Source: Vicugna vicugna (taxonomy: Eukaryota). From it: 35,955 bases of DNA. Positions within the stretch are counted from its first letter, which is position 1. Each line of letters begins with the position of its first letter. Location of the stretch: the NCBI GenBank assembly GCA_013265495.1, contig MU058037.1, forward strand, positions 1,923,498 to 1,959,452. Direction: 5' to 3'. This document shows, piece by piece, positions 3,271 to 35,955 of this stretch. The notes beneath the pieces were generated by a model, which worked only from the letters and a program-made list of their open reading frames with translations, had not been told where the DNA came from and searched no databases. Both the position numbers and the translations under genes were made by a program.

Positions 3271-4249
3271 AGATTAATAAAGGGAGATTTGAAACAGATT
3301 TTTTTTAGCAGTTCTCTAAATTTCCTAAAATTGAAAAGTCAGATAATGCCATTATTTGTGTATGAATTAGAATTTTCCTTGGCAGAATATTATCAGAGAT
3401 TTTTCCTTTCGAAAGATAGCTGGTATGGCTAGGGAGAACTGAAATAATAGGCTGCCTATAAATTATGAGATTAGCCAAGAAGCCATTTTGTAATATGTTT
3501 GAACTTTACCTTACAGCTAAAGGGTAATACCAATGTTTTACAGCGAAGGCCATACAAACAATGTTTAGGTTTTAGATGGTAAATATGTTTTAGCTCAGAA
3601 ATGTGTTATGCATCAAAGATAATGTTGATCAGCAATGCTCAGTTTGAAAAATATGTTTTTATTTCTTAACTGTAGCCCCCTACGTAGTATAGAGTAAGCA
3701 GTTGACATCTCCTCTTCCCACATTTCTCCTACTGGGTCTTAGAATAAACTAAGCCAAGAAAATTGAGTCTCCCTAGTTCTCAACAGCCTTGTGGAAAAGG
3801 GACCAGGAAAAAGCTAGCTTTGCTCTAATGAACAGAGTTTTGGCAGTTCTGTACACTATAAAAGTCTGAGTTCTTATCGTAAACTGGGGTACAGTAGTGA
3901 GTTTTGTAGCCTTTCAGTTAGGCTCAAGCTTTGAGTCTTAAAACTCTAACCTCTGGCTCTCATAGCATGAGAAAGATGGGGGCACATGTGTTACTATCAC
4001 CCTGATAGCCACATCCATCCCCAGGAGGAACAATGTCAGAACCTAAATGAATCTTTAATCTTGGAACCAGGGCTCTAGGATTTGGTGCCATTTCTCTTTT
4101 CCTGTCTGGTCTACACATCCAAGATATAGTCTTCCCTCCTTCTTTTAAGTACCTGATACCAAAGAGAAGTACTGGCAAGGCTAAGGAGAATTGAAATATG
4201 ATGCTGTCTGTAAATTACTGAAGTTAGCCAAGAAGCTATTTTATAATAT

Positions 4250-4562
4250 TTTTGAACTTTATCTTATATCCAAAAAGCAATCATTGAAGTTTTAAAAACA
4301 TGAGACTGCCATGATATGTTTTAGAAATATGAATCTTTCTTCTAGGGGAATAATAAATTGGAAGAGATACTAGAGGAAAAAATGTAGGAATACCACTGCT
4401 GAGGTAGTATTACAATGTCCCTAGCTTGGTAGCAAACATTGAAAAGAAGGGCAAGATATAAGAGATAATGTGAAGGAAGAACTAGTGAGAGGACTTGTTG
4501 GGGCGAGCTTGATGAGAGAAAGGTATCAGAGATGGCTTTGAGGTTTAGAGTCTGGGAAACCA
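4250..4562 (-). mobile_element. LINE-2 fragment
   Basis: Purine-rich reverse-L2 motifs 'gaactttatct...cattgaagttttaa' and 'gagagaaaggtatcagagatggctttgaggttt'. Confidence 0.65.
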
Positions 4563-6596: not shown

Positions 6597-8738
6597 TCCA
6601 AGAGGGATTTATTACTTGAATTCAAGGGCAGTTCAAAATATGAAAATTAATCAATTTGACAGCCAATATTAATAAAACAAAGGATAAAAATCACATGATT
6701 TCTCAATCGATTCAATAAAAAATTTGACACATTTAACACCCTTTCATGATTAAAAACTCCCAACAAAGTAGGAATAGAAGGAAATTACGTCAACAAAGGC
6801 CATATATGAAAAGCCCACAGCTAATATCATGCTCAATGGTAAAAAAAAAACTGAAAAGATTTTCCTCTAAGATCGGGAACAAGGTAAGGATGCACACTTT
6901 TACAACTTCTATTCAAAATAGTACTGGAAGTCCTAGCCAGAGCAAGTATGTAAGAAAAGTAATAAAGAGTGTCCAAATTGGGGGAAAAAAGAAGTAAAAT
7001 TATCTCTTTGCAAGATGATATGATCTTATATGTAGAAAATGCTAAAATGCCACAAAAAACCTATTAGAAGTAATCAACTAATTCAGTAATGTTGCAGTTT
7101 ACAAAGTCAACAACCAAAATTGCATTTTTATATAATAACAATGAACTATTGGAAAAGGACATTAAAAGCAATTGTATATCCTATAGCAAAAAGAGAAAAG
7201 AATAAAATAATTAAGATTAAACTTAACCAAAGAGATGGAAGACTTTATAATGAAAACTATAAAACATTGCTGAAAGAAATTAAAGAAGAACCAAATAAAT
7301 GGAAAGCAATCCTGTGTTTATGGATTGGAAGAATTAATATTGTTAAATGTCCATACCACCCAAAGTGATCTATAGATTTAATGCTACCTATGTCAATAAT
7401 CCCATGGCATTTTTGTACAGAAATAGAAAAAACATCCTTAAATTCATGTGGAACCACACAGGATCCCAAATAGCCAAGACAGTCTTGAGAAAGGACAAAG
7501 ATGGAGACCTCACACATTCTGATTTCAAAGCATATTACAAAGTTATAGTAATCCAACCAATATGGTACTGGCATAAAGACAGACATATATACCAGTGGAG
7601 CAAAATACGGAGCCCAGAAATAAACCTGCACATATAAGGTGAATTGGTGTTTGACAAGGGTGCCAAGACTACACAATGTGGAAAAGACAGGCTATTCAGC
7701 AAATGGTGTTGGGGGAACTGGATATCCAGAATGAAATTGCACCCTTACCTTATGCCATACATGAAAATCAACTCATAATGGATTAAAGACTTGAATATAA
7801 GACCTGAAACTGAAACAAAACCCATAGGAGAAAACATAAGGTATTAGCTTCAGGAAACTGGTATTGGCAATGATTTCTTGACTACAACACCAAAAGCACA
7901 GGCAACAAAAGTGAAAATAGACAAGTGGGACTACATCAAACTGAAAAGCTTCTTCACAGCAAAGGAAACAGTCAACAGCGTGAAAACGCAACCTATGGAA
8001 TGGGAGAAAATAATGCAAGCCAAATATCTGATGGGGGTTGATATCCAAAAAATATAAGTAACTCCTACAACTTAATAGCAAAAAAAAAAAAAAAGCCAAG
8101 TAACCTGATTAAAAATGGGCAAAGGACTTCCTTAGACATTTTTCCAAAGAAGGCATACAAATGGCTAATAGATGTATCTAAAGATTGTCAACATCACTAA
8201 TCAGGGAAATGCAAATCAAAAGCACAATGAGATGTCATCTCATACCTTTTAGGATGACCATTATCAAAAACAAAACAAAATAAAGCAACAATCGAAAATA
8301 AGAAGTGTTATTGAGGATGTGGAGAAATTGGAACCTTTGTACACTGTTGGTGGGAATGTAAAAATGGCGCAGTTGTTATGGAAAACAGTAGGGAGATTCC
8401 TTAAAGAATTAAACATAGCGTATGATCAGCTACTCCACTTCTGGGTATTTGTCCAAAAAAATTGAAAACATAATCTTGAAGAGATCTTTGGACTTCTGGC
8501 ATTACAGCATTATTTACAATAGCCGTAATGTAGAAACAACCTGAATGTCCATCAACAGATGAATGAGTAATGTGGTGTATACATACAATGAAATATTATT
8601 CAGGCTTTAAAAAGAGGGAAATCTCGTCATGTGTGACAACATGGATGAACCTTGAGTTCATTGTGCTAAGTGTAACAATTGAGTCATAGAATGATAGATA
8701 CTGCACAATTCCCCTTACATGAAGTATCTAAAATAGTC
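6597..8738 (+). mobile_element. Decayed LINE-1 (ORF2 RT/C-terminal region plus partial 3' UTR; L1MA9-like), copy A
   Basis: ORF fragments 'LYNENYKTLLKEIKEEPNKWKAILCLWIGRINIVK' and '[43 protein letters not shown]' are L1 ORF2p, broken by many stops and frameshifts. The 3' UTR is cut at 'gaagtatctaaaatagtc'. Confidence 0.95.
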
Positions 8739-8744
8739 TTAAGT

Positions 8745-11246
8745 ATAAAAGGCTGGTTCAATATCTGAAAATCAATCAATGTAATCCACCATATTAGTAA
8801 GCCAATGAACAAAAATATTGTCATATCAACTGATGCAGAAAAAGCATTTGGAGAAATCTAACACCCATACATGGGGGAAAAAAAAAACTTACAGCAAGTT
8901 AGGAATAGAGGGGAACTACCTTAAACTGATAAATAGAATCCACAAAATGTCCTCAGCTAACTTCGTACTTTGTGGTGAATGAATGATTGCTTTCCCCCTA
9001 GGATCAGGAATGGGGCAAAGATGTTCGCTCTCACCATTCTTATTCAGCATAATACTGAATGTTCTGGCCACTGCAATTAAGCAAGAAAACAAAATAAAAG
9101 GCATACAGATTACACAGAAAGACATACAGCTGTCTCTATCTGCAGATGACATGACTGTCTATGTAGGATATGGTAAGGAATCTACAAAAACACTTCCAGT
9201 GCTAATAAGTTCAGTAATGTTGCATGATACAAGAATCAACCACATTTCTATAGATTAAAAATAAACTTATGGAAATCAAAATTAAAAGCCATTTATTATT
9301 CCTCAATGAAAATGAAATAGGTAGAAACTGGAGAACAGATATAAAGGACCTATATTCTGAAAAATTACAAAATGTTTATGAAAGAACTCAAAGAAGGCCT
9401 AAATAAATGGAGAGACATACTGTATTTGTTACCAACATGATAACTATGTTAATTCTCCTTAAATTGGTATGTAAGTTTAATATAATTCCTAGCAAAATCC
9501 CAGTAAGAATTTTTTTAGAAAAAGACATGCTTATTTTGAAATTTATATGGAAAGCACAAGTTCTAGGATTGCTGAAAACAGTCTTGAAAAAGAAAAATTA
9601 AATGAGAAGAATTACTATACCCAATTTAAGGTTGGCTGTATAGCTCCAGAGATACAGAAGAGTGGTATTGGTTGGGGGACAGACACATAGGTCAGTGGAA
9701 CAGAGTACAGACTCTCAAAATAGACCCCCACACACATGCCCTACTGATTTTTGACAAAAGTTCAAAAGCAATTCAAAGGAGGAAGGATAGCTTTTCAATA
9801 AGCAGTGCTGGAGGATTTAGACATCCATAGGCAAAAAAGAAATGAAAAAAAGAACTTGACCCAACCTTGACATTTTACACAAAAGTTAACTCCAAATGGA
9901 TCACAGATTTCTTAAATGTAAGATGTAAAGCTGGATATCTTTTAGAAATAAACATAGAAGAAAATCTTTGGTATCTAAGATGAGGCAAAGACTTTTTATA
10001 CTTGACACCAAAAATATGATCCATAAAAGGAAAAGTCGATAAATTGACCCTCATCAAAATAAAACACTTTTCTCTGTGAAAAACCATGAGGGTAAAAGAT
10101 ATCTGCTAAAGAGTGGGAGAAAAAATTTGAAAAACACACATTTGAGAAAGGACTTGTATCCAGAATATATAAAGAACTGTCAAAACACAATAGTAAAAAA
10201 CAATTCAATTAGAAAGTTAGCAAAAGACATAAAAAGACATTTCACCAAAGAAGACATACAGATGGCAAATACACATATGAAAGATGTCCAACTTCATTAG
10301 CCTTTAGGGAAATTTAAATCAAAACCACAATGAGATATTACTATATCATATCAGAATGGCTAAAATAAAAAAAAATAGTGACAACACCAAATGGTGACAG
10401 GTATGGATTGAAACTGGATCAGTCATAAATTGCTGATGGAAATATAAAATGGTTCAGTCAATCTGGAAAACAATTCAGCAGTTTTGTAAAAAATAATGAA
10501 ACATACATGTAGCATACAACCCAGCAACTGTACTCTTGACCATTTATCCCAGAGAAATGGAAATTTATTTTTACATAAAAACCTATACACAAGTGTTCAT
10601 GATAGCCTTATTTGTAATAGCCCCACACTGGAAACAACTTTGATGTCCTTCAACAGGTGAATGGTTAAACCAACTATGGTACATTCATACCATGGAATAC
10701 TACTCAGCAATAAAAAGGAATGAACTACTGATACATCTTGGATGGATCTTCAGACAATTCTGTTGAGTGAAAAAAAGCCAATCTCATTAGGTTACATGCA
10801 TACTGTATCATTCCATTTATGTAGAGAACAGATTGATAGTTGCCAGCTGTTGGAGACTGGGGCAGAGAATGGGAGGGAAGTAGGTACAGTTATAAAAGGG
10901 TATCCTTATGGTGATCATATAATTATGTATCTTGACTGTGGCGGTGGACCCATGAATCTACACATGTGATAAAATTGTGTAGCGCTAAATACATAGCTAT
11001 ATCTCTCTCTATTAAGATAGACTCACAAATGAGTGCATGTGAAACTAATAAAATCTAAATAAGATAGGTAGGTTCTATCAGTACCAATAGATACATACTG
11101 ATAGGTTCTATCAATATCAAGATCCTGGTTGTGATATGGTGCTACAGTTATGCAGGATGTTACTACTGGGGGAAACTGGGTGAAGAGTATATGGAATCTT
11201 TCTGTATTATTTCTTATAACTTTATTTGACTAAAATGTTTAAAAAT
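8745..11246 (+). mobile_element. Decayed LINE-1 (L1MC/L1MD-type), ORF2 RT region to 3' end
   Basis: 'AFPLGSGMGQRCSLSPFLFSIILNVLATAIKQENKIKGIQI...LSLSADDM' is L1 RT (GxRQGCPLSP and FADD motifs, degenerate). The 3' UTR 'gatcctggttgtgatatggtgctacagttatgcaggatgttactactgggggaaactgggtgaag' is L1MC/MD-type. Confidence 0.93.
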
Positions 11247-11249
11247 GAA

Positions 11250-11856
11250 GAAGAGATTAGGTACAATTAAACAATGTTAGAAACAAAAATGGGACAAACA
11301 TCAGAGATGAAATACATCAGAGATTTTAAAAGATAAGAGATTTTATGATCAACTTTATGCTCATAAACTTGAAAATTTAGATAAAATGGATAATTTCCTA
11401 GGAAATATAACATTAAAATTGACTAAACAGAAAACAGAAAACTCAAATAAACATAATCATTTAAGAATCTGGGTCAGTAGCTAAAGTTTCACTCTCACAC
11501 AAGCACAAAACACTATGCCTAAATAATTTTATGGATGAATTTTATCAAACATTCAAGGAACATAGAATCCCAATCTTCTGTAGACTCTCCAGGCAATAGC
11601 AAATGAGGAAACATGTAATTCGTTTATTGAGGCTATTTCAATCTTCATACAAAAAACAGACATGGACATTTTTAGAAAGGAAAGTTACTGGCCAATCTCA
11701 CTAATTAATACAAAAGCAAAAATCCTAAATAAAATATTATCAATAGTATTTAAATAAGTATAAAATATTATCAGTAATATTTTACTTAGGATGTTTGCAT
11801 TTTAATGTCTTTAAATATGCAACTCAACTACATTGGGTTTAATTCAGTCATAAAAG
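11250..11856 (+). mobile_element. Older LINE-1 ORF2 fragment (L1ME/L1M5-type), left part
   Basis: 'aactttatgctcataaacttgaaaatttagataaaatggataatttcctagg' and 'ggccaatctcactaattaatacaaaagcaaaaatcctaaataaaatatt' (the RPISL..D.KILNKIL region). Confidence 0.85.
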
Positions 11857-12787
11857 TGTAACTAGTAAATTGAATAAGTAGGACTAATGGGGTATAATCA
11901 GAAACTTTGATTCCCCTATTGCCAATTGAAGTCCACTCTGTGGGATTAGATCTTTTCCCTTGGATCAAAAGTAAGACAGTTCCATGACTCTTATGTATTT
12001 TTGTCACGTTTTGTCACAGAAAAGCCTCAGTTTAATTAAATATCAGTAATAAATAAAGCTTTAATATTTCTTTAAAGTTGTATCTTCTTCCATCTCTCAC
12101 CTTAGGCCTACTGTGGGCTGGATAGTTGAAATGAGAAAGGGGATGTGGCCACTATCTTCTTACTTTCTCCCTAGAGTGCTTCTAACTCTTCTCTGCCATA
12201 ATGTTTATGAGGGTTTGTGATCCCTCTAGAATTGCATCATAAAAGGAGATAGATGAGAAGAGGAAGAAGAATAAGTTCTTCCTTGATTAATACTTGATGA
12301 ACCAGCATCAAAATATTTGAGCCTGACTGATGTTTAAACCAATTTGTTTTCTTATGGGGTACTCTTATGTGCTTTTCTCAGACTTTCCTGTCCTTCATAT
12401 TTCTCAAGTTGAGTCAACAATCTGTGTCTTCTGAGATCTGAGTGACACATACCAAACCTTCAAGTGATTCCACTGAAGCTCCTTTCTCTAGGCTTAAGGT
12501 GAATGTGAGCCCTGCTCCCACACCCTTCCACTGGGAGAACTTTAGACACACAGAACACCTACAGCTTTCTCTCAGTTCCTCTCCTAATTTCCAAGCATTT
12601 TCATGGCCTCTCTACTTTCTTTTAGATGTGGGGATTGGTGGTCAGCTAAGGGTCACAAAACTAGTTTGCAGCTACCTCCTTTACAAGACCACCATGGTGA
12701 TCTCACACATTGGCATGTGTTGTTTATTGTTAGGGCCTTCGCCAAAACTGAGACTGAAATAGTTCTGCTTTAAAACTCTATTTCACA
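11857..12787. mobile_element. Probable ancient solo LTR (~930 bp) inserted into an L1
   Basis: A non-L1 block with TG...CA ends (TGTAACTAG...TTTCACA) splits the L1 motif 'tgggtttaattcagtcataaaag | aggtttgtttactattaggaaaatctattaa'. No clean TSD is visible. Confidence 0.6.
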
Positions 12788-13570
12788 AGGTTTGTTTACT
12801 ATTAGGAAAATCTATTAACACAATTCAACACAATACACAAAGGAGAAGAATATATTATTATCTCAATAGAAGCAATCTTTTCTTTTAATATCTCAATAGA
12901 AGATTTATTTGATAGAATTCAGTATTTATTTATGATTTAGAAATCTCTTACAAACTAGTAATACAAAATAATATCTTAACTTGATTAAGAATTACCTGTT
13001 AAAAACTTCCATAGTAAACACCATACTTAATGATTTAATGCTTGGAGCCTTATTTTTAAAATAAGGATCAAGAAAAGGATTCCATTATCTTCATTTAACA
13101 TTTCACTGGAGATTCTATCCAACATAGTAATACAAGAATTTTTTAAAAAGAGAATAACATTTATTAGAATAGGAAAGTAAGGAATAAAATTACCACTATT
13201 TATAGAATATGCAGTTGTCTATACAGAGGATCCAAGAAAAATTATTAGAATTGATAAGAAAGTTCAACATATTCACTGAAAATCAGTATGTGAAATCAAT
13301 TGTATTTCTATCCATCAGTAACAGTTAGAAAATGTAATTTTTTTATTTAAATTTTTTGAAATTATTTTCAATAACAGTTTAAAAATAACCAATAATAGAT
13401 CTAACAAAGGATGTACATGACCTTTATGGAGAAAAATTATAAAATGTTATAAGACTTTAAGGAAAACCCAAGGAAATAGTGACAAATACAATGTTTATGG
13501 AGAAGACTCCATCATCATAAATATGTTATTTGTCCCACAATCAATCTAAGAATTCAATACAATCACAATC
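12788..13570 (+). mobile_element. Older LINE-1 ORF2 fragment, right part (continuation of 11250-11856)
   Basis: 'aaataaggatcaagaaaaggattccattatc', 'aattattagaattgataagaaagttcaac' and 'ctaacaaaggatgtacatgacctttatggagaaaaattataaaatgtt' are collinear with L1 ORF2. Confidence 0.85.
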
Positions 13571-13586
13571 AGAAGACATTCATGGG

Positions 13587-13716
13587 TTATGGTAGCTCAC
13601 AGAGAAAAAAAAATGTGACAATGAATATATATATGTTCATGTATAACTGAAAAATTGTGCTCTACACTGGAATTTGACACAACATTGTAAAATGATTATA
13701 AATTAATAAGAAAAAA
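13587..13716 (+). mobile_element. Young, extremely 5'-truncated L1 3' end (camelid-type) with 16-bp TSD
   Basis: Perfect direct repeat AGAAGACATTCATGGG at 13571-13586 and 13717-13732. The insert has an A-rich tail and closely matches the reverse of 35655-35775. Confidence 0.92.
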
Positions 13717-14009
13717 AGAAGACATTCATGGGAATAATAAATCCAAATTTGAGGGTGGGGCAAATGTGAGAATGGACATATAAGAACTTCTTTTCTTTTA
13801 TAGTATTTTATTTCTTAATCTAGGTAGTTTATACACAGGTGTTCATTATGTTCTTTTTTTTCAGTATTTCTTAAATATTAAGTTTAGGGAAAGGGTGTTG
13901 AGCACACAACTTTAGCATTATATTGCTGTCTACAACAAACCAGTCTCACAAAGTAACTGCTAATTTGGTATGGATTTATATCTAAATGCATTTACACCCT
14001 AGATTCTCT

Positions 14010-14100
14010 ATCCTTTACTTCTGTGTGATGTGAAGCAGGTAATTTATACTCTGAAAACCCTCAGTTTCCACATCTATGAAATGTGGTTATCATAAGCAAT
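14010..14100 (+). mobile_element. MIR core fragment
   Basis: 'ctgtgtgatgtgaagcaggtaatttatactctgaaaaccctcagtttccacatctatgaaatgtgg'. Confidence 0.7.
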
Positions 14101-15882
14101 TTAAAATTAAAAAAAATTTTAAGTAAGAGGATAAATTATGCTTTCAGTATATTTTAGTTTATTTCTCTATATTCTCTATTTCACTATCTGGTTCAGGTAG
14201 TGAAACACCTGGGACTCACAGTGCCCTTTGAGAAATACCATGAAATTCTGACATATATAACTCAATCTTGTGACCTAGGAGAAGTTTTACTCAAAGTAAA
14301 TATGGCATTTGTTTATAATATACAACCACAACCACACACGTAAGTAAGAGTTTCTGAATTACTCCACTAGTCTGCATTTGCTGCCACTTCTATAATTTTG
14401 TCTTCTGCTAGCATTCCTAGCATCAGTATGAGAAAAATTTATGGGTGGAATTATAAGATTGAAAAATCCCATGTATTAGTCTAACTACCCATCCCCCTCC
14501 CCCTCCCCCACCCCTGTGACTTGAGAAAAGAGCACTAATGTTGGAGTTTAGTTGAAAAACCTTCAATTATTCTTGGGGGAGGGGTGGAATCCCTGGGATG
14601 CAAAGCAAATAGAACATTGAAGAGGAAGTCCAAGTGGCTCCACCCAGCAAAATAAAAACATCTTCAAACCCTCCTATCAATATAATCAACATGACAAATC
14701 TTTCTTTAAAAGGTTTCTGGCTTATTAGTCTTTATTATCAGGTACTAGGTTAGACATTCCTTCATTTAAAGATAGAACTGCTATTTTAAAATCCAAATCA
14801 GAAATTGTTTGAAATATTTCCTCTGAACTAAGTTGAAGTGATCTATCCACAGAGCACATTCAGATAGTGAGTTATATCAAATGGGATTCAGAATAACTGC
14901 TCCTTAAAATGGGATTACCCAGGCATTCTAGATTTTGTTATATATGTATTTTAATTAATTTACAAAAATCCTTGTAAATGAAGCCTTGCTGGTACCTAGA
15001 CTTTCCCAGTATGACTTGAGATGAATCTACTACTCAGAGAAAATAGATACTCCCATCTACCCTTCTTCCATGGACTGACCAGACCTTATTAAGAACAGAT
15101 AGTCCTCTTTCCCAAGGTTGTTCAGGAAGTTATTAATTAATTTAACAGTATTTCCTGAGGACCTACTAGGTTAAATCATTGTTCTAGATGCTGGAGATAT
15201 AGCCGTGAACAAAATAAAGTTGTGTAGTTTAATGTTAGTAGTAAGTGTTATGAAAGAAATTAATCAGTGCATGAGAATGGAATTATGGGTGATACCATTT
15301 AAGATAGAGTGACATTTGAGCAGAGACCTGAATAAAGTGAGAGAATGAGTCATGTGAAGATATTGAGGAAGACAGTCTCTGAAAGATGAGAGACCGTGAA
15401 GGTCCTGAGGTGGGAACATGTTTGTTGTGATAGAAGAAGGGCAGGAGGCCAGTGCATAGTTTGAGTTTAGTGAAAAAGAGAGCTAGTGGCAAGAAATGAG
15501 GACAGAGAAATATTCAGAGGCCTTAATGGGGAAGGCTTTGTAAGCTACAATAAAGACCTTAGATTTTACGCTAAGTGTGATGAAAAATCACTGGAAGGTT
15601 TTGAATTTGGGAAAAATGTACACTGACGTATATTTTTAAAGCGGGTCATCCTGGAAACTGTAGGAAAATGAATCGTAGAGAGATAAGAGTACAAAGTCAG
15701 AGGCTACCTTAGCAATCCAGTTGAGAGATCACAATGGCTGGGACTGGAGTGTACTGGTAAAAGTGGTGAGATGAGTGATGGTAGAATATACAGGATTTGC
15801 TAATGGATTATTTGTAGTGTGTAAGAGAAAGCATAAAAGATGACCACAACTTTTGTGACTTGAGCAAATGCATGAATGATGG

Positions 15883-16230
15883 TGCTTGTCTTTGGGCTAC
15901 TGTAACAGAACACCATAGACTGGTGGTTCACAAACAACAAAAATTTATTTCTCACAGTTCTGGAGGCTGGAAAGTCCAAGAACAAGGTGTTGGCAGATTC
16001 ACTGTCCAGTGAGGGCCCACTTCCTGGTTCATAGACAGCTATCTTCTTACTGTGTCTTCACACGGCAGAATGGGTGAGGGACCTCTCTGAGGTCTCTTTT
16101 ATAAATGTACTAATCCCATTCATGACCTAATCATCTCCCAAAGACCTCCCATCACCTAATACCATCACATTAGGTGTTAGGATTTCAATATATGAATTTT
16201 TGGAGAGGCACAAACATTTAGTGTATAGCA
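15883..16230 (-). mobile_element. MaLR solo LTR (MLT1A/MLT1A0-like)
   Basis: 'aaatttatttctcacagttctggaggctggaaagtccaagaacaaggtgttggcagattc' and the end 'gcacaaacatttagtgtatagca' are typical of reverse MLT1A. Confidence 0.92.
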
Positions 16231-16860
16231 GTACCATTTACCGAGATGGCAAATGTTTGTTAAGATGGGAAACACTGGAGAAGGAGTGGTTTGGGGGGAG
16301 GGGAAATCTACCGTTCATTTTTTAACATGTTAATTTTGAGATCTCTATTAGAAATCTAAGAGCAGGCAGTAGACATGAGACTGGAGTTCGGGGGAAAGTT
16401 GGAGCTGGAGACATTTGGGAGGTATCAGTTTATAGTTTGTATTTAAGACAATGAAATCTAGAGGCATCTAGAGGCAGCATGTAGACAGAGAGAAGATGTA
16501 TGAACATTAACTCTGGGGTGTTATGATATATAGAAATATGGAACAAGAAAATAATAAGGGAGACTCAGAAGAGGCAGCCATCAGGGAAGCAAAATCCATC
16601 TTAGAAGCCAAGAAAGTGTTTCATGAAGGAGAGACCAATCAGCTTTGACAAATGATGCTAAGACCTCAAGGAATACGAAAATTGAGGATTGATATTGGAT
16701 TTGGCAATGCAGATTTGGCAATGTGGAGGGGACTTAAAGAGGCAGATTTCATTGGAGTGTTGTAGTGGATTCAAGGAACAGTTGGAGGAAAAAAGTGAAG
16801 ACTATATGGGTAACATTTTCAAAGATTTAGGCTGTAAAATGGAGTAATGAAATGGTGAGG

Positions 16861-17320
16861 TGTTGGGCGGTACCCCACAGGCCTATAAGGCCTGTACTAT
16901 CGCATCCTCAAAACTGAAGAAAGAGCCCCCTAGTTCAGTGACAGAGACATCAAAGGTTTAATGGACAGGGGGATCTTACATCTGAAGCAAGGTCCTGGAA
17001 CAACTCCCCACTGTGTGCAGTGGACGGTAGGCAAGACATGGCAGCAGGCTTCCCAGGGGGAGGTTAGCAGTTATGGGAGAATTGATGTCAGGTTGTCTCA
17101 TCAATTACCAGGGAAACCAGCAGAGGGGCACACCCTCACCACCCCTTTGATAAGCATAGTGGAGTTCTGATCTAAAGTTAGAACAATCTCTAGCTGAGGC
17201 CTGGGTCAAGTACGTAGGAAGATCAGTCATGTGAGTAAGGTGTAGGTGAACCAGGCACTGGTTGAGCAGAAGATGTACGGAGAGCAAGAGATCAATCATC
17301 TTGAGTGGCCTGACCACACA
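16861..17320 (-). mobile_element. Solo ERV LTR (460 bp) with 5-bp TSD
   Basis: TG...CA termini (TGTTGGG...CACACA) are flanked by TGAGG at 16856-16860 and 17321-17325. An ATTAAA poly(A)-type signal on the minus strand lies ~100 bp from the left end. GC content is higher than the host L2. Confidence 0.85.
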
Positions 17321-18556
17321 TGAGGGACTATTGAAACAATGGAGACTTTTATGATTGGACTTATTACAGCCTGTTTGTGTGCTAGTGAAAATGATAGTGA
17401 AATAAATGCTACAGGAGAAAAGAGGGACAGTTACAGAGGCACTGTTTTCAAGGTGCTGAGAAGGGTAATAGGTGACAGGACATCAAGATAGGAGCTAGAT
17501 AGTTTATCTTTTATAACTGGAGAGAAGGCAGAATATATGGGTGCAGATGCAATGAGATTAGAAAATGTGGTGGTGAAGGATGTGGAAGTTCAAACTCTTT
17601 CTGATTGATTTTTCAGTGGAAACAGGTAATAAAGTCATCAGCTAAAAGTGAGGAGTGGGGAATGGTGTTGGAGTTTTGAGGCAGGAGGCAGTGGTGTGAC
17701 AGACTCATCTTAGATAATGGGAGAATGACTTGACTTTTGGTAAGTATAATTGGACTACCAGGCAGCACTGAAGGTCGACATGTGGCTCATGGTCATAAAT
17801 CTAAAATGAGCCCACGTGCATACCTTTTCCCAATCATGCTCAGTAACTGAGGTGCAGGCATGCAATAGGTGGAAAGATGGATTTAAACATGTTATGGTTT
17901 TGCCTATAACTACAAGCTGTCCTGGTCATGTTATTTTTCTTGAGGCGCCATAAGAAGCAAGAGACTTCCGTGCAGTAAGTCAGTGATTTGGGAAAGAAGG
18001 AGTGGCTAGAAATCAAACCGGGGAGATAAAGATATCTCCAAGGAAGACAAAACATTTCATTCATTCCTCAGACTTTTTCATATGAATCAGTCTTTTAATA
18101 ACCCCCAAGTTTCGTGATGGATCTTGATTACTTCCAACTCCTTCAACATTCAATAAATTATCCCCACCCATAGTCCCAAGAGCAAGAAGTGGCATCAAGC
18201 AAGCCATCTGGATATGGGCTTAGCTGTGTGAGAGGAAACCAATGGCGGGAGAAAGCAGTATCACTCACAACCGATGAGGTCCTTGGCTGTTCTCTGGGGC
18301 AACCCTCCTCTTCATTTTCAGGCGGGACATACTTTAATATAGTAACAAAAGAAAAGCCCAGCAAGGAAGCAATACGTTTCATTGTCCAAATGAGTGCTGG
18401 TGCTAACAGAGTTTTATGAGTGTGGAGAGTGGCATTTGCAGAATTTTTACCTTATCTGTTTTTCAAGAAGTTAGTTTAGGAACATTTTCGAAGGCAATCT
18501 TTAAACAAAAGTCAATTCAAGAGAAAGCCTCTCTCTGTGGAAATATAGAAAGTTTC

Positions 18557-18565
18557 TGTGTGTGT

Positions 18566-18604
<39 letters not shown>

Positions 18605-18637
18605 CCAGAGAGAGAGAGAGCGAGCGAGCGAGCGAGC
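18557..18637. repeat. Compound microsatellite (TG)n(AG)n(AGCG)n
   Basis: Directly visible: tgtgtg...agagag...cgagcgagcgagcgagc. Confidence 0.97.
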
Positions 18638-19049
18638 AGGCATCGATTCCAGCAAAGGCAGCTGTTGGCAAGAGCTTGTGGCATATAACTCTACAAATTG
18701 CCCTCCATACCCCAGCACAGCTTGTGAACTCTCCAGAAAACATTCTGTGTGTGTTAGGCTCCCTCTTTCAGACTCTGCGCATAGGCAGCTGTTTGTTGAG
18801 TTTTGTAATTATACAAATGATGACAGCAGCCTAAACAGCTTCCCATGTTTTCCAGTTTTTCCTTAAGGAAAACAGGCAAGCATTTCCCATTACAGAGAAT
18901 CATACATAGAATCTAGGCTTTTCATGGAGATTTTCAGGGTCCATATTATAAGGAACCATGCAATGATGGAACTTAGAAACCAAATTAATGAACCTGGACC
19001 TTATCCTAAAAGTAACAATAAGAGGACAAGCAATGGAAGTCTTTTTTAT

Positions 19050-19502
19050 TTTTGGCTTAAAACAACATTGATGTATTATTTCTCATGAATCTGTGTGTTG
19101 ATGGGGCTGTTCTGCTGGGCTCACTACTGAAATGGAATTCTGTTGTAAGGTGGTTGAGATAGCCTCAGTCATTTGCCTGACAGTTGGTGCTGGCCTCTTA
19201 CCCTCCTTGTGGGCTTTTATCCTCTGGTAGGCTTATCTGGTTTCCTTAGGTAGCCTCAGGGCAGTGTTCAAGGTGGGGAAGATGCAAGTTGTACGGTCTC
19301 TTGAGGCTGAGGCTTTGTAACTAAAAAAAAAAGTCACTTCTGCCACATTCTATTGGTCAAAGCGAGTCCTAAGTCTAGCCCAGTTAAAGGGATGGATAAA
19401 CAGATGGAATCTCTGGGTGGGAGGAAGGGCACAGTCAGCTGCAAAGGGGCAGACATACTGCAATGGGAGAATTTTGTGACCATTTAAAAAAACTGACTAC
19501 AC
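19050..19502 (-). mobile_element. MaLR solo LTR (MLT1H/MLT1F-like)
   Basis: 'ggcttaaaacaaca...tattatttctcatgaatctgtgtgttg' and 'gtcacttctgccacattctattggtcaaagcgagtcctaagtctagcccag' are reverse MLT1 motifs. Confidence 0.85.
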
Positions 19503-19844
19503 CAAAAAACACTACTGAAATCCCAGAACCCACTTTGGGAAGTGTTATTCTAGGCTGAGTGACTTTTCCTCCCTAAAAAAGTTTCTCCCCAGTAGAGTAC
19601 ATACTTCTGATTGCTTAATTTCATTGTATAATCATATTGTGGTCCTAGGTCTCCTTCACTGGAGTTACAATACACGTGTTCTCTAATTTGGTTATCTTAC
19701 TGTACCAATTGCCAGTGTTTTTTCTGGGATAATTCCAATAATTCCATGCTTATTTTTGTAAGCTGAGAACAAAGAGGTCTTAAAGTTAAAAAAAAATCGT
19801 ACTTGTTTTATTTTCCAAGATATTAACAGCAGGGGGGAGCTATG

Positions 19845-20690
19845 TGGGTTACATCCAACATCATTGGGGGAGATCTCTTCATGCTGCACAGAGCTGCCTG
19901 GATGCATAGAGAACATTGTATCCATGGTCCAGAACCAGGCTCTGCAACTGTCCCCTGTTAGTGGAAGTGCTAAGGTATTTTGCTGTATTTTTCTAGCATC
20001 AGAACTGGAGGTAGAGACTATACTGTTTAGAAAGATTGCATTCATGCAGATCCTTAGACTTGGTATCTTTTAGAAGATGATTTTCATGTGACCTCTTTTG
20101 AGGTTTGCAGTCAACCCCTTTCCTTCAGTTTATGGAATCTTCTATTAATTATAAACTTCAATCTGTAGTTGTACTTCTCCCATACTTTTCAGATGCCAGA
20201 GAAAGGCCATCACCAACTGCTTGAGCTTGTAGCAGATGCTAAGGAGTGGCTCACTCTTCTATTCCAACCTTTTTCTGGTGTGTCTTTCTGTACTTCAAAG
20301 ACTGTAAAACTCCTTTGAAGGATTCTGAATGTGATTTGTGCTCCACCACTTAGATACTCTCATGTGAAACTTGAATTGGAAAATGAATTAACTGGGAAGA
20401 GAGGCAGCATATAAGGCATCCCTGTTGATGGTGACATGGGCTATACGATTCTGGAACTGGCAGCTGTGATTTCCTTATTCTCCAGTAGCTACCTTGGTAA
20501 CCCAGTCCCGTGGGGCTTTGGGGAGCTGTTCCTTGAATCTCAGTCTAGAATTTTTCTCAATGCTGATGTTATCCATTGAGTTGTAGGTTCTACTGCATGA
20601 GAAGAGAGAAGGCAGAATGACCCCATAACCCAGGAAGTCTTTAGCTGTTCTCCAGGGCATTTCTTCAGTGACTGTTCCCTTGGAGCACAG
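19845..20690 (+). mobile_element. Putative ancient RTE-X (L4-like) LINE remnant, RT C-terminal half and downstream domains
   Basis: Manual translation across stops and frameshifts gives, in order: VTSNIIGGDLFML (~LLYADDLVLL), SAKVFCCIF (~KTKVMVF), RLGIF (~KYLGIxF), LLELVADAKEWLTLLF (~LKLFDAKVxPILLY), KLL*RILNV...VKLELE (~FLRRILGV...RLELG), WAIRFWNW (~AIKFW), EERR...GHFFSDCSL (~ER.C...HFLLxCPL). Confidence 0.5.
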
Positions 20691-21024
20691 AGCTGGGTGG
20701 AGAAGGATGTAAAGGAAATTTGGAGAAGCAAATGGAAGATACCAGCACAATAATTAGGCCTAATGATCCAGCCAATCCTTGGGTTTTAGCTAGTTTTACA
20801 TCTCCTCTCACTGGCATTCATTGTAGGAGACTTGCTCTTAAATACTCCTTTGTAAACCATGCTGGACACTATGCTGTAACATTTACATACCTGTTTCTGT
20901 TATATTAATCATTAAGATTACAATCTTATAGATGAGCAGAGGAGAGGAATTGGAATTGATGGGGCTTGAATTTAGTTTTGTGTGGTTTTAAAGCCTAAGA
21001 TTTTCTAGAAAGTCATGCCCCCTT

Positions 21025-21056
21025 AGAGAGAGAGAGAGACAGACAGACAGACACAG
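21025..21056. repeat. Microsatellite (AG)n(AGAC)n
   Basis: agagagagagagagacagacagacagacacag. Confidence 0.9.
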
Positions 21057-22984
21057 ATATACACAGAGGTTGGGGGAAGAGAGGGAGAAGGAAATTAAAT
21101 ATTAAATCCCTTTGACAAAGATTAAATAAGATTATAAACATACCCGTTTTTATTCCTCTCCTACCAATAACCTTTCTCTCCATCAACTGTCAGTTTTCTA
21201 ATAAGAGAAATAAACAGAACACAACTGACACTCCAAGTGTGGTTTTGAGGATCAACCTTTTTCGGGGCTGTAAAACATTTTACAAACTTCTTTACAAACC
21301 TGTGTAAACTTCATAGCTTTCAACAAATATATTGATGATCTTATTGATAGTGAATTCACTTATTGCATTCAATTTAGTTTTAAATAATATTGTAACATAG
21401 GAAATTAAGCAAGTGAGATTTGTACCAGCGAAGTAGGCTAGGTCATTTCTTCAGTATAGTGTTTTTGATTATGTTATGCTTTCCATATTATGAGACTTTA
21501 AAATTGTGTTAATCATTTTATTTCTAAAGCATACTTATTTTAACATAATGAGCTCTTATTTAACTTTAATTGTTTTAAGTAATTAAGAGATTAATATAGT
21601 AAAGTACAATTTTCACTTTTGTATGGTGAGTAGTTTCTTATATTAGTGTTAAGAATGTATTTGTAAAAAGTAAAATTTTCTTTTGAAAAATTTATATAAA
21701 GGCATGAGATGGAATTTTGCTGGTTTCCTTATCAAGAGGATTTTTTTTTCTAGCCATGTAGGCACCTTTTTATAGAGTAATTTTCTCTAGTTTCATTATT
21801 TGTAATTGAAATCTATAAACTATCTTTTGTGGCCCCCTGTAACTTGTTCCATGATTGTGAGTTTTAATGATAGCTTTCTTGGAAAGAAGGTAAAATCAGT
21901 TGACTGACACTAATGGACTGGAGTTTATATAGAAGATACAAAATCATAAAAGTAGCTTATTTTTTCTTCAAAAAGAAATCACACAAACAAAAAAGAAATT
22001 GCACAGGAATATTTCCAGTTGCCTTTAAGGAAATCTGTCTGTTTGTACTTGTCTTTAGCTGCCTTGATGTTTCTTGGGCAGACAGATTTTTTTTATAAGT
22101 TGTTAGTATGAATCGTCATGATACAAAACGTATTCTTTGTTTCATTTTAACCTATTTGTCTTAGATCCTGAACTTTATTCAAGTATTTCTTTTTAAAAAA
22201 ATGGAAATGTACTGTTGGCCAGAAAAAAATTAATTTTCTAACCGCACCCTTAAAATTTTTATTTTCCCAGAGGGCTATTAAATTCTTAAGGTCTTCAACA
22301 GTACTTTCAGGAGATATCAGGGAGCTTGCATTGAGAGATTAGCATGTTTACTATGTAAGTGCAGTGATGTACATGAAACCTTTTAAGATTAACATAAATG
22401 TGCTATTTTTAAAATACACATCTTGAGGTGGTTAAGGAACCTTAAAAACCTTGCTTTTAATCTTAGATGGCAATTTTGTGGAAAAAAAAAGAGTCTCAAA
22501 GAAGACAGCCAAATATTTAAGTAATATTTTCCTTTCTCATCAACACTGTAGTAGCAAGAAAGCAGTAACTATTGAATGTTAGCTTTCTGTAACCCTTTCA
22601 AGACTTAAAATTTGGAGATAATGTTTGCTTTCAATCTTACTTGGAGATACTAGATTATGCATAACTTGGCTAAGAGTATCCTTCATTCAGCATCAGCCTT
22701 GGCATTTATTAAGAAGCGAAAGTCAGAAGGGGTTATTGGTCCTTCATTATTATATGTGTAAATTAAGACTATATTTTATTTTACTAACCTTAAAGTACCT
22801 TTAACAAAAAAAATAATAATAAAAGCTATAGTTATACATATGCCCCAAGTCTTTGTCCTTTTTCTCTCAGGCAGGGTGGAAGAATGGGGATGAGGAGCCA
22901 ATATAGCTATAGGAAATACTTCCAGAAACGAATGTTTACCAGTGCTTTTGTTCCATCTTTAGTGAGGATATTAACAGGCTGTTG

Positions 22985-23095
22985 TAATAAGTGGCTGAGT
23001 ATAATGGATTTTGGAGTCGGCCAACTTGCTGATTTGGCTAATGGTTAGATGAAAACTGAAACCTCTCCTTCTCTGAGGTTTCCTCTCCTCTGAAT
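22985..23095 (+). mobile_element. MIR 5' part (3' part appears to resume at ~23590-23675)
   Basis: 'gtggctgagtataatggattttggagtcgg...ctctgaggtttcctctcctctgaa'. After the L2, 'cacagcagtaaatgtttaatcagtgtgagct' resembles the MIR 3' end. Confidence 0.5.
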
Positions 23096-23097
23096 TT

Positions 23098-23585
23098 CAG
23101 CCACACTGGCCTCCTTGGTATACCAAACATGCTCCTCCCTCTTGGCCTTTGCTTTGCTCTTCCCTCTGCCAGAAATGCTCTTCCCTAAGGTATTTCATGG
23201 CTTATTCTTTCAGTTCACTCAGATTGATCCAAATGCTGTCTCCTTGGAGTGGCTTTCCCTGACCTTTCTAAAATAGCTCCTGACTCTGTTTCTTCATCCT
23301 GCTTTATTATTTGTCATAACACTTTTAACCACTTGACGTTGTATTGAATCATGTTATATTACTTTATATTATATCATATCATATGTTTGTATCTACTTTT
23401 TTATATGTATTTATAAAAATTATGTAACTATTTTCTGTCTCCTTCACTAGAATCTAAGCAGCATCATGAGGTCAAGTTACTTGCTTGCCTTGTACACTGC
23501 TGTATCTCCAGTGCCTTGAACACTGCAAGGCAAATAGCAGTTGTGCAAAAATGTTTGTTAAATGAATCAGCAAATGCATGAATAA
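23098..23585 (+). mobile_element. LINE-2 3' end (L2a-like)
   Basis: 'cagccacactggcctcctt...tccctctgccagaaatgctcttccc' and the terminus 'cactgctgtatctccagtgccttgaacactg...atgtttgttaaatgaat'. Confidence 0.9.
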
Positions 23586-23814
23586 GACTGATTTTGCAGG
23601 ATTCCTTAAGAGAACTAAATAAGACAGCTTATAAATAACACAGCAGTAAATGTTTAATCAGTGTGAGCTGGCTTTATTCAATGGTGGGAGAGGAATATTG
23701 TATAATTCCCTTTATATTTACACAGAGAAAGATGGTAAGCTAATATATCTGTATGAAATGCTCCCCCTGCCCCAAATGTTTTTAACTTAGCACTAAAATG
23801 CTGAGAGGTGAGCA

Positions 23815-25700
23815 TTTTGTTGTAGTAAAAAATACACAACATGAGACCTACCTTCTTTACACATTTTTAAGTATACAGTACAGTATTGTTAACTATATGC
23901 ACATTGTTCTACAGCAGATCTCTAGAATGTTTTCATTTTGCATTACTGAAACTCTATACCTATCAAACAGCAACTACCCATTCCCTCCCCCACCTCTGGC
24001 CCCACCCTCCCTCCGCCTTAGCCCCTGGCAAGCACCATTCTAATTTGTGGCTTTATGAGTTTAACTACTTTAGATACTTCATGTAAGTGTCTTTCTGTGA
24101 TTGGCTTATTTCACTTAGCGTAATGTCCTTGACGTTCATCTATCTTGTAGCATATGACAGGATTTTCTAATTTTTGAGGCTAAATTCCACTGTATGTATA
24201 TACTACATTTCATTTATCCATTCATGTGTCAATAAACATTTAGGTTGTTTCTACATCTTGATTATTGTGACTAATGCTGCAATGAAGATAGAATGTAAAT
24301 ATCTCTTCAAGATTTTTTTTTAATTCTTTAGGATAAATACATAGAAGTGGGATTGCTGTATCATAATTTGATAGTTGTGTTTTTAAATTTTTTGAGGAAC
24401 CTCTGTACTATTTCCATAGCAGATGTACCATTTTACTTTCCTACCAGCAGTGCACAAGGGTCCCAGTTTCTCTATATTCTCACCAATTCTTATTATTTTT
24501 CTGTTTTTTCTTTCTTTTTTTTTTATAATGACCATCCTCACACATATGAGGTGATATCTCATTGTGATTTTGATTTGCATTTCCCTGATGATTAGTGATG
24601 TTGGCCATCTTTACATAAACCTGTTGGCCATTTGGATGTCTTCTTTTTTATGCAACTAAATCCTTTGCCCAGTTTTAATCAAGTTTTTGATATTTTTTGC
24701 TATTGAATGGTAGTGGTTCCTTATATTTTTGGGGTGTTAACCCCCATAACATATACAGTTTGCATTATTTTCTCCTACTCCATAGGTTTCCTTTCCATTT
24801 TGTTGATTGTTTCCTTTGCTGCGAAGAAGCTTTTTAGTTTGATATAGTCCTACTTGTCTATTTTCAATTTTTTCGCTTGTGCTTTTGGTGTTGTAGTCAA
24901 GAAATCATTGCCAATACCAATTTCTTGAAGCTAATCCCTTATGTTTTCTCCTGTGGGTTTTACAGTTTCAGTTTCAGGTCTTACATTCAAGTCTTTGATC
25001 CATTTTGAGTTGATTTTCATGTATGGCATAAGGTAAGGGTCCAATTTCATTCTGGATATCCAGTTCCCCCAACACCATTTGTTGAAAAGCCTGTCTTTTC
25101 CACATTGTGTAGTCTTGGCACCCTTGTCAAACACCAGTTCACCTTATATGTGCAGGTTTATTTCTGGGCTCCCTATTTTGTTCCACTGGTGTATATGTCT
25201 GTCTTTATGCCAGTACCATATTGGTTGGATTACTATAACTTTGTAATATGTTTTGAAATCAGAATGTGTGAGGTCTCCAGCTTTGTTCTTTCTCAAGATT
25301 GTCTTGGCTATTTGGGATACCTTGATGTTCCACATGAATTTAAGGATTTTTTTTTAATGCTGTATAAAAATGCCATTGGGTTTTTGACATAGATTGCCTT
25401 GAATCTGTAGATCACTTTGGGCAGTATGGACATTTAACAATATTAAGTCTTCCAATCCATAAACACAGGGTGGCTGTGTTATTTGGTTCTTCTTTAATTT
25501 CATTCAGCAATGTTTTGTAGTTCTCATTGTAAAGGCTTTCACCTCCTTGGTTAAGTTTATTCCCAAATATTTTACTCTTTTTGATGCTATGTAAATAAGG
25601 TGATTTTCTTAATTTTTCCTTTCAAATTGTTTGTTATTAGTATATTGAAAGACAAATGATTTTTGTATCCTGCAACTTTGCTGAAATTATTAATTTTTTC
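23815..25700 (-). mobile_element. Decayed LINE-1 (L1MA9-like), 5'-truncated, copy B
   Basis: Reverse L1MA9-type 3' end ('gtatacagtacagtattgttaactatatgcacattgttctacagcagatctctagaa'), with ORF2 fragments '[34 protein letters not shown]' and 'MQIKITMRYHL'. Possible aged TSD gagaggtgagcatttt (23803) / gagagataagtatctt (25704). Confidence 0.95.
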
Positions 25701-26439
25701 TAGGAGAGATAAGTATCTTTAATGCAGAACACTTGTTTCTCTGTGAACCTGTCAAATGTCCTCCAGCCTGGTCTGTTTGTACTCCTACATTTTTTTCTTT
25801 AGTTAGTCATTCTTGTCTGCTTCTCCAGGACCCTAAGATCATAAAATGTAACTAGCTAGATAGTCAAGCTGTTGAAGTGCCAAAGACCCAACCATAGTGA
25901 GGTCTTCCAAAAGAACAGGACAGAACCCAGAACCCAAGACAGGGCTAAACTTGTTCTGGCTAGTGATGTGAGTCTAGCCATGATGCTTTGTTGTCCTGGG
26001 GTCTAGGAATCAGAAATGGCATCAGGTAACCCCTCTGTCCTAGCAAACCTGAATTTCACAAAGCATTGCTTCTATTTCCTCAGTGTCAGCCACCATGAAT
26101 AACACAACCAACTACCATTTTACATTTTGCAGGCTCTGGATTACTTCAAAGAAATTCTCAGACAATTTCCTGAAGGCTCTAAAGTAGCCATACACTGTTG
26201 TTTTTTTTTTTTTTAACTACATAATGATTCCCTTGGATTAGGGCAATTTTCCACATTTCACATCAGCTTTTCCAATGTAGTTGATATAAAATACTTTTTT
26301 TCTCAGTTCAGAAGGACCACTTAAATTGGTCTTTAGGTAACACTGGTGAAAAAGGTGTGTTCATTTGTCATAATACAATAAAAATTAGAATATATTATGC
26401 CAATTGACTTTAATATTTATGCCTTGACAAAATAATTTC

Positions 26440-26750: not shown

Positions 26751-26799
26751 CAGTGGCCCCAACTTTTCATGTATGAGAACCCTAATCAAAAACTCACCA

Positions 26800-27440
26800 T
26801 AGATTTCTGGTTCCAGTCAGAGTGGAGTAGTTCCATTCCTCCCAGGACCTCTCTTTAATATCTAAAAAAATCCCTGGATGTAACAGCAAACAAGCATAGG
26901 AAGACTGAAAGGTGGTAAGAAGAAGATAGATTACCTAGGGATCTTGGGACTGAAGGAAAGACACAGTGGTGAAGTTCCCTGGGGTGTCTTACAGTCTCCC
27001 ATATGTCTTAGATGATACAGAAGCCTCCAACCCAAACCACCAACAGGCACAGACCCAAAAAAATCTCTAAGAAAAGCTTATTATCCTTTTCCAAAGGACT
27101 GGAGAAAGGGTCACCTAGTAACAGACAAACTTTTTAGCAGTACCTGCCCTACTTCAGCTAAACACCAGTGGAGTAATTGCACCACTCTAACTGACAGTTT
27201 CAGTGAGGTCCAGCTAGGAAGTGAGCTTTTGTCTGCATCCTGCAGCAACAAATCAGTGTGTCAGCCCTTTGCTTCCCCTCTCCCTGGTGTCAGTGGGATT
27301 GGGGTGGGTGGGGCAAGGAGCTACAATTACACCTCCACTCAAAGACAACAAGGCAGTGAGAGTTGGTGCCCTATTTTTGCCAGGAAGGTGTCAGCAGGGC
27401 CAAGGGGGCAGCTGAACTTCCACTCCAACCATTTGCAATG
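26800..27440 (+). mobile_element. Old L1 5' UTR-like segment (L1MC/L1MD 5' end)
   Basis: Begins 'gatttctggttccagtcagagtggagtagttccattcctccc', which resembles the gacttccgg...aagatggag start of old L1s. It directly abuts L1 ORF2 sequence. Confidence 0.55.
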
Positions 27441-27442
27441 AG

Positions 27443-28370
27443 GCAGTATAAGTTCATACTTCTAAGTAATCCATGAATCAAAAAGGGAGTCTCAAAGGAA
27501 ATTTTAAAAATACATAGAACTCGATGCAAATGAAAATATAACATATCAAAAATATGTGATACACAGCTAAAGCAGTGCTGAGAGAGAAATTTATACCACC
27601 GAATGCTTCTGTTAGAAAACAGGACAAGTCTCAAATCAATAATCTAACTTCCTACCTCAAAGAACTACAAAAAAGAGCAAAATAAACTCAAAGCAAGTAG
27701 AAGGAAGTAAATAATAAGAACAGATAACAATGAAATTGAAAAGAGGAAAATAATAGAGAAAATTAATGGAACAAAAGCTGGTTTTTAGAAAAAAATCAAT
27801 AAAACTGATAAATGTCTATCAACACTGAAAGAGAGAAGACAAAACTCAACATCAGGAATGAAGCGGGATATCACTATAGATCCAGCAGAGAACACTACAA
27901 AGAAGTTTGTGCTCATAAATTCTAAAACTTAGGAAAAAATAAACCAGTTCCTTAAAAACTACAAATTACCAAATTAAACCAAGATGAAATAGTTAATCTG
28001 AATAGTTCTATAGTTGTTAAAGAAATGAGTTCATAATTTAAAATCTCCCCCAAAAAGAAATCTCTAGGCCCAGATGGCTTCATTGGAGAAGTCTACCAAA
28101 CACTTAAAGAATAATTAGCACCAATTTATACAATCTCTTCTGAAGAATATAGGGGAAGGGAACATTTTACAATTCATTTTATGAGGCTAGTGTTACCCTC
28201 ACATCAAAACTAGACAAAAGCAGTGCAACAGAAAGGAAAGAAGGAAGGAAAGAAAAGAAAAGAAAAAAAAGAAAAATTGAAAAAGACTACATACAGATTT
28301 TTTTTCATGGACTTACATGCAAAAATCCTCAAGAAACATCAGCAAATCAAATCCAGAAATGTATTAAAAA
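27443..28370 (+). mobile_element. LINE-1 ORF2 (end of EN domain to start of RT; L1MC/MD-type)
   Basis: 'atgaaaatataacatatcaaaatatgtgatacacagctaaagcagtgctgagagagaaatttata', 'ctctaggcccagatggcttcattggagaagtctaccaaac' (PGPDGF) and 'gcaaaaatcctcaagaaac'. Confidence 0.92.
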
Positions 28371-35641: not shown

Positions 35642-35955
35642 CTTTTTTTTTTTACATTTTTTTTATTGAGTAATAGTCGTTTTACAATGTTGTGTCAAAT
35701 TCCAGTGTAGAGCACAATTTTTCAGTTATACATGAACATACATATATGCATTGTCACATTTTTTTTTCACTGTGAGCTACCATAAGATCTTGTATATATT
35801 TCCCTGTGCTATACAGTACAATCTTGTTTATCTATTCTACATTTTGAAGTCCCAGTCTGTCCCTTCCCAGCCCCCGCCCCCTTGGCAACCACAAGTTTGT
35901 ACTCTATGTGTATGAGTCTGTTTCTGTTTTGTATTTATGTTCATCTTTTTTTTTT
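35642..35955 (-). mobile_element. Young L1 3' end (camelid-type, L1_Vpa-like), runs to the window edge
   Basis: A poly(T) tail is followed by 'ttattgagtaatagtcgttttacaatgttgtgtcaaattccagtgtagagcacaatttttcagttatacatgaac...cccccgccccttggcaaccacaagtttgtactctatgtgtatgagtctgtttctgttttgta'. Same family as 13587-13716. Confidence 0.92.

Follow-up and report, generated by a model that had tools for sequence, protein, structure and literature searches.

An inverted pair of old L1 copies in the vicugna genome with signs of probable, and probably repeated, gene conversion

The window analyzed here is a stretch of 35,955 nucleotides of Vicugna vicugna DNA (assembly GCA_013265495.1, contig MU058037.1, positions 1,923,498 to 1,959,452 of the forward strand), in which we investigated two decayed L1 elements, copy A and copy B (Table 1). 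The copies are placed tail to tail; their inner ends are 15.1 kb apart, while the two most similar segments, referred to below as the cores, are 17.0 kb apart. Their homology to ORF2 was seen in a phmmer comparison with solved L1 ORF2 proteins (E ~1e-22), and protein P0001 matched at 65% over 96 aa. The ORF2 frame of copy A reaches ~8720 and contains 10 in-frame stops in 316 codons. The copy ends at 8738, just beyond the end of ORF2, with almost no 3' untranslated region (UTR) left. Its 3' end is lost, and it adjoins an older L1. Copy B retains the LINE-1 hallmarks, i.e., a target-site duplication, a 3' UTR and an A tail. Presumably both belong to the L1MA9 subfamily, a label taken from a first-pass annotation of this DNA. 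Self-BLAST of the window returned a single strong inverted match, between A 7065-8737 and B 25702-24064 (79.7% over 1703 columns). Since this match stops where the L1 sequence stops and the flanks share nothing, an inverted segmental duplication was rejected.

Table 1. Positions within the window of the two L1 copies, their segments, common lesions and target sites.
Feature	Position	Strand	Remarks
L1 copy A	6597..8738	+	5'-truncated, decayed 3' half of ORF2; without 3' UTR and tail; adjoins older L1
L1 copy B	23819..25702	-	5'-truncated, decayed end of ORF2, 3' UTR, short A tail
Spacer between copies A and B	8739..23802	.	interval that an inversion would flip
Putatively homogenized core in A	7464..7898	+	probable youngest layer; 18/435 columns differ from B
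Putatively homogenized core in B	24880..25317	-	from alignment to A
5' shoulder in A	7229..7463	+	probable older layer; 32/231 differ; common 1-nt deletions near 7241, 7344
5' shoulder in B	25318..25548	-	from segmentation of the alignment
3' shoulder in A	7899..8035	+	8/72 differ (7899-7970), 15/65 (7971-8035); common 1-nt deletions 8014, 8032
3' shoulder in B	24743..24879	-	outer end approximate
Premature TAA stop, A and B	7635..7637	+	present in both copies
Shared 9-nt deletion site	7727..7728 (B ~25054)	+	both copies
Shared short tandem duplication	7806..7817	+	6 nt in B; A since lost 3 nt beside it
Second premature stop, A and B	7845..7847	+	present in both copies
B 5'-side target-site duplication	25704..25719	-	preceded in B orientation by TT/AAAG
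B 3'-side target-site duplication	23803..23818	-	12/16 identical to 5' side

Identity between the two copies changes in steps along their alignment. The first-pass annotation had counted by hand about 19 differences over ~420 bp (~95% identity) and one small indel, and the count was exact: when A 7461-7895 is aligned globally with B, 19 of the 435 ungapped columns are mismatched (95.6% identity; 12 transitions and 7 transversions), with one 3-nt indel. Its remark that the flanking L1 sequence is more diverged agrees with the 31/228 differing columns at A 7229-7460 (~86% identity) and the 161/765 at A 7896-8690 (79% identity). It was mistaken, however, in speaking of more diverged 3' UTRs, as the region is ORF2 coding sequence to ~8720 in A, which has almost no 3' UTR to compare. 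Divergence is therefore not uniform along the element (4% in the core, 22% in the 3' part). The best segmentation according to the Bayesian information criterion (BIC) gave 13.9% divergence for 7229-7463, 5.1% for 7464-7970 and 22.2% for 7971-8690, and the low-divergence middle segment reached a log-likelihood ratio of 33, against a maximum of 8 among 60 shuffles scanned on a coarser grid. By Fisher's test, the core (18/435) differs from the 3' part (7971-8690, 153/690) with p=1.5e-18 and from the 5' shoulder (32/231) with p=1.7e-5, and the shoulder differs from the 3' part with p=0.006. The corresponding Kimura two-parameter (K2P) distances between A and B are 0.043 for the core, 0.154 for the 5' shoulder, 0.122 for 7899-7970 and 0.267 for 7971-8690. 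The longest identical run, 59 nt, is what 18 random differences would produce (P=0.85), so a recent patch is absent and nothing points to a collapse. A stretch of 45 columns with one mismatch (8189-8233) was considered as an extra tract and rejected, since adding it worsens the BIC.

The changes that A and B carry were then set against other L1 sequences. The alignment contained A, B and 13 other copies, of which three lie in the window and 10 are among the 15 fetched loci (the other five, L006-L009 and L015, were excluded because they are short or rearranged). These outgroup copies come from other subfamilies and species, being 59-72% identical to A and B. At 319 polarizable sites of the core, 56 changes are shared by A and B and 15 are unshared, in comparison to 40 and 111 at 478 sites outside it (7971-8690; p=1.6e-13); the 5' shoulder has 24 and 21 at 164 sites (p=0.001 versus the 3' part). 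Divergence from the outgroup majority is 21% for A and 19% for B in the core, and 18% and 24%, respectively, at 7971-8690. The core is thus not nearer to the outgroups, yet its mutations are common to A and B, which indicates shared history rather than conservation. At sites invariant in all covering outgroups, shared and unshared changes number 16 and 4 (of 130 sites) in the core, 4 and 8 (of 84) in the shoulder, 15 and 53 (of 263) at 8061-8690, and 0 and 13 (of 38) at 7065-7228. The A-B distance, as a fraction of that between outgroups, rises from 0.14 in the core to 0.36 in the shoulder and 0.69 in the outer part; in partition trees the summed A and B tips are 0.05, 0.17 and 0.33 for the core, the shoulder and the outside. 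In windows of 200 columns neither A nor B exceeds 79% identity with any of the 13 other copies, while A-B identity rises to 97%. The remaining nine L1 pairs among the window copies reach 77% at most and have no comparable tract, and no third copy with the core tract was found within the window. The shared changes comprise 27 AT-to-GC and 21 GC-to-AT replacements, without a signal of GC-biased conversion.

Both copies also share damage that breaks ORF2. Two premature stops are common to them, and, as the first-pass annotation had stated, both lack the same 9 nt and carry the same short duplication (Table 1). The 9-nt deletion is absent from all 13 other L1 DNA copies and from all 119 ORF2 proteins that cover the site (120 aligned), which represent other subfamilies or species. 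Over 144 core codons, 20 rare amino-acid states are common to A and B, while 11 and 5 are private. An active master L1 cannot carry stops and an ORF2-breaking deletion. Since the common stops, deletion and rare residues are impossible in an active master, the shared sequence must be that of an already dead copy. Common lesions were also found beyond the 430-bp tract: 1-nt deletions near 7241 (base kept in 4/5 outgroups), at 8014 (10/10) and at 8032 (8/9), a further one near 7344 (6/6) that lies in an A run and is possibly recurrent, and a stop at 8179. A TGG-to-TAG stop at 8531, present in A and B, may be a parallel mutation, since B has several such changes. A shortfall of 3 nt near 7490 was discarded as evidence of shared history, since it is found in protein P0001 too (1/120 at that length). 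Exchange long after insertion, as proposed in the first pass, is thus supported by the shared damage and by the step in identity, but the proposed limit of ~430 bp does not stand, since sharing extends into what appears to be an older layer. This second layer (7229-7463, 14% apart) and the common frameshifts out to 8032 are new in this analysis and probably point to repeated events.

The target sites bear on the question of inversion. The duplication flanking B is aged, with 12 of 16 positions identical and four transitions, exactly as first described. Among random site pairs, such a match was reached by 0/3000 at fixed positions, 4/3000 with 3 nt of slack and 7/3000 with 6 nt. The motif that precedes the 5'-side duplication in the orientation of B is an endonuclease-like site. 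No match was found between the 5' flank of A and the 3' flank of B (best 8/14). The matching target sites of B, together with a 5' flank of A that is unlike the 3' flank of B, argue against one net inversion, which was thus rejected, but not against an even number; the initial preference for conversion or an even number of flips over a single net inversion therefore holds. Derived changes upstream of the core are evenly divided (19 in A, 20 in B) and no arm swap was seen. Nor is the signature of retrotransposon-recombination-mediated inversion (RRMI; chimeric elements with mismatched target sites) found here, as the target sites of B match.

We consider it likely, on the evidence of sequence, that the feature arose by non-allelic gene conversion between neighboring old inverted L1 copies, probably repeated. 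A and B would have been separate old insertions of the same or close subfamilies. After the onset of decay, a double-strand break in one copy may have been repaired without crossover, with its counterpart at a distance of 17 kb in the same chromosome as template. There would probably have been at least two nested events, the older spanning at least 7229-8032 and the younger 7464-7898 (or up to 7970), after which A and B would have drifted apart. On the K2P distances, with the outer divergence set to 1, the relative ages are 0.16 for the core and 0.58 for the 5' shoulder. The sequences joined in each event would then have been ~11% apart, with the reservation that the outer value may include subfamily differences. 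This is within the identity range reported for conversion, which occurs mainly above ~80% identity and declines with distance (PMC3924818), and is best at 89-100% identity (PMC8230782). L1M subfamilies are said to be more than 60 million years old (PMC2603318), and if this applies to A and B, the core would be roughly 10 million years old or more. At a rate of 5e-9 per year (PMC8605555) it would be ~4 million years old, but the element would then be implausibly young. Efficient recombination needs a perfect match of ~200 bp (PMC3924818), thus with a longest run of 59 nt the pair is now under the efficient minimum. As to direction, the decay of B at outgroup-invariant sites falls from 49/263 outside to 17/130 in the core while A stays level, a weak and non-significant hint (p=0.20) that A could have been the donor. 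No function is implied for the tract, and no gene or phenotype is implicated.

Several observations weigh against this explanation or parts of it. The common lesions at 8014, 8032 and 8179 lie in sequence that is 22-23% apart, as diverged as the outer part, and the 15/65 differences at 7971-8035 have P=0.03 under the shoulder rate; the lesions at 8014-8179 would stem either from a third, very early event or from a common defective source. Three segments are only 1 BIC unit better than two. Unrelated L1s are also more alike in the core region (75-76% versus 67-71%), and the outgroups are so distant that subfamily-specific states inflate the shared counts everywhere. The distance of 17 kb exceeds the ~10-kb range given for Alu pairs (PMC6598467, PMC8230782). 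Moreover, the case for conversion is built on one locus, a single assembled sequence and L1s of distant subfamilies. Finally, of the differences within the core 14 arose in A and 5 in B, with 1 unpolarized (p=0.064), whereas at 7899-8690 the bias is reversed (56 in A, 83 in B, 34 unpolarized; flip p=0.007). One full conversion predicts symmetry, so the A-heavy core differences would have to be due to chance, to a repair that was patchy or to constraint acting on B. This last option belongs to a reading that we find unlikely, in which exchange at this pair has renewed itself over a long time and the core of B may be under constraint. In its boldest form the core of B, a decayed L1 piece, would have been co-opted under constraint and A would be its drifting shadow, carrying 14 of the 19 polarized core differences.

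Other explanations of the same observations can be weighed against conversion. If A and B were both copies of a single non-autonomous L1 that was damaged beforehand, a common defective source, or if a third decayed donor located elsewhere overwrote both cores, direct exchange between them would concern the core only or would be unneeded. The common lesions at 8014, 8032 and 8179 fit a defective source equally well, and the shortfall near 7490, present also in P0001, implies that some shared states predate the pair. However, a common source should give uniform divergence and not the step from 4% to 22%, while one third donor striking the same interval of two neighbors is less economical than mutual exchange, and within the window there is no third copy with the tract. 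We thus hold such an origin to be quite unlikely. The tracts could also be crossover-associated, with the 15-kb spacer inverted an even number of times or polymorphic and each flip leaving a tract. Inversions caused by inverted L1 pairs are known, more than half of them above 10 kb in length (PMC2603318), inversions between inverted repeats recur often (PMC3961182), and nested layers are compatible with repeated recombination. Nevertheless, the same target-site duplication at both ends of B rules out fixed flips in an odd number, recent inversions are seldom the work of old L1M elements (PMC2603318), and a perfect match of at most 59 nt is far under the ~200 bp efficient minimum (PMC3924818), which makes this course of events very unlikely.

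An assembly or polishing artefact, in which reads from one copy were used for the other, may also be considered. The support from public sequencing runs lies outside the tract: the spacer at 13900-23700 is present at 0.92-0.99 in 20 of the 23 listed runs (9 studies, 4 organism labels; 3 marked as a possible source), which concerns the spacer and not the tract; runs X21-X23 (share 0.00) provide no evidence, and there is no distant relative among the 23. However, collapse would give ~100% identity, while the core has the 3-nt indel, a longest run of chance length and 18 substitutions that are evenly distributed and enriched in transitions, and a 14% diverged shoulder with common frameshifts cannot arise by mis-mapping. 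Such an artefact is highly improbable. It is also possible to assume no exchange at all: the two copies would be of one subfamily, and the core would be a piece of ORF2 that is conserved or mutates slowly. The greater likeness of unrelated L1s in this region agrees with that, but A and B are equally far from the outgroups in the core and outside, and the items they share in the core are stops, a deletion and rare residues; the chance of this explanation seems to us next to negligible.

Other observations concern the surroundings of the pair and the searches. The start of copy A and that of the older L1 adjoining its truncated 3' end fall at almost identical ORF2 positions (6631 aligns with 8756; 6597-6720 versus 8739-8860). 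This may be due to chance, or copy A may have joined the older element through homology at the 5' end of A, with the 3' end of A lost afterwards. Dense nested old L1s occupy 8739-11200 and 26780-30540, with a third copy (28381-29100) sitting inside an older one. The direct L1 pair 9453-10824 / 29155-30512 is 69% alike and has no homogenized tract. In the spacer, TG and GA microsatellites grade into GAGC repeats at 18556-18930, followed by ~250 bp of non-repetitive DNA that looks promoter- or first-exon-like by eye, with no gene identified. The 3' ends of two young-looking retroposons (13587-13715 and 35657-35955) are inverted, 93% alike over 129 nt and 21.9 kb apart; they resemble camelid L1 3' ends. 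A direct repeat of ~100 bp (3420-3521 / 4172-4274) is 82% alike with 750 bp between its copies. The Rfam scan of the window gave no matches, and none of the 6 rows of the tandem-repeat scan falls within the homogenized tract. An exon-like open frame of 94 codons (31509-31793, minus strand) was dropped, as none of 66 candidates was homologous, the best Pfam match was under the cut-off and the atlas matches were below 0.9. A 25-letter L1 pattern had no matches in viral contigs and none in metagenome contigs, and none of 37 candidate stretches from genome contigs matched the decayed translation of A. Among the fetched loci, L010-L014 are mammalian L1 ORF2 sequence on short low-coverage contigs of bacterial records (Streptococcus, Enterococcus, Sinisalibacter, Paraclostridium), which most likely reflects contamination; L001 and L012-L014 are close to one another.

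If gene conversion is indeed the explanation, the locus preserves, in clean form, a fossil record of ectopic repair between diverged old L1s, past the ~10-kb Alu range, with nested layers that are datable from related genomes. It would also mean that repeat ages based on pairwise identity, as well as subfamily calls, can mislead at loci of this kind. A screen of the whole genome, comparing inverted with direct neighboring L1 pairs for tract frequency in relation to distance and divergence, suggests itself. Since the process is established and no gene or phenotype is implicated, a single locus is of modest interest. No account of conversion in layers between old, inverted L1 copies was found in the open-license literature, where 'L1' alone is not searchable, and this is weak evidence of absence.

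Gene conversion between neighboring Alu elements is established (PMC8230782, Doronina 2021; PMC6598467; both describing Aleshin and Zhi 2010). As in the present case, these are neighboring retroposons sharing non-diagnostic mutations, in which partial tracts give hybrid elements. A and B differ from them in being L1s at 17 kb instead of less than ~10 kb, 22% apart outside the tract, with a 435-bp tract longer than an Alu, and in representing one locus. Ectopic conversion has also been described among human long terminal repeats (LTRs; Trombetta 2016, PMC4921805) and within the LTR pairs of camelid elements, of which ~1,800 per camelid genome have intra-element conversion tracts (PMC8605555). 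Here, too, linked repeats serve as donors, and LTR tract maxima extend up to 450 bp; however, the LTR cases are in direct orientation or young and polymorphic, while A and B form an inverted non-LTR pair with fixed-looking nested layers. RRMI between inverted L1s (Lee 2008, PMC2603318), and the inversions known to recur between inverted repeats (Aguado 2014, PMC3961182), use the same substrate, an inverted L1 pair with a spacer of more than 10 kb, but mostly involve young L1PA or long near-identical repeats, while the matching target sites of B leave no net inversion here. Mammalian X/Y palindromes (PMC8981503, PMC8327919) likewise consist of inverted copies homogenized by conversion. Their arms, however, are many kb long, more than 99% identical and gene-bearing, in contrast to 0.4 kb of dead L1 at 96%, in which neither ongoing conversion nor GC bias is apparent; with 96% identity at best and a longest run of 59 nt, a palindrome under ongoing concerted evolution was rejected. 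The process itself is thus an established one, and the locus is a further example of known gene conversion between nearby repeats, if our explanation of it is right.

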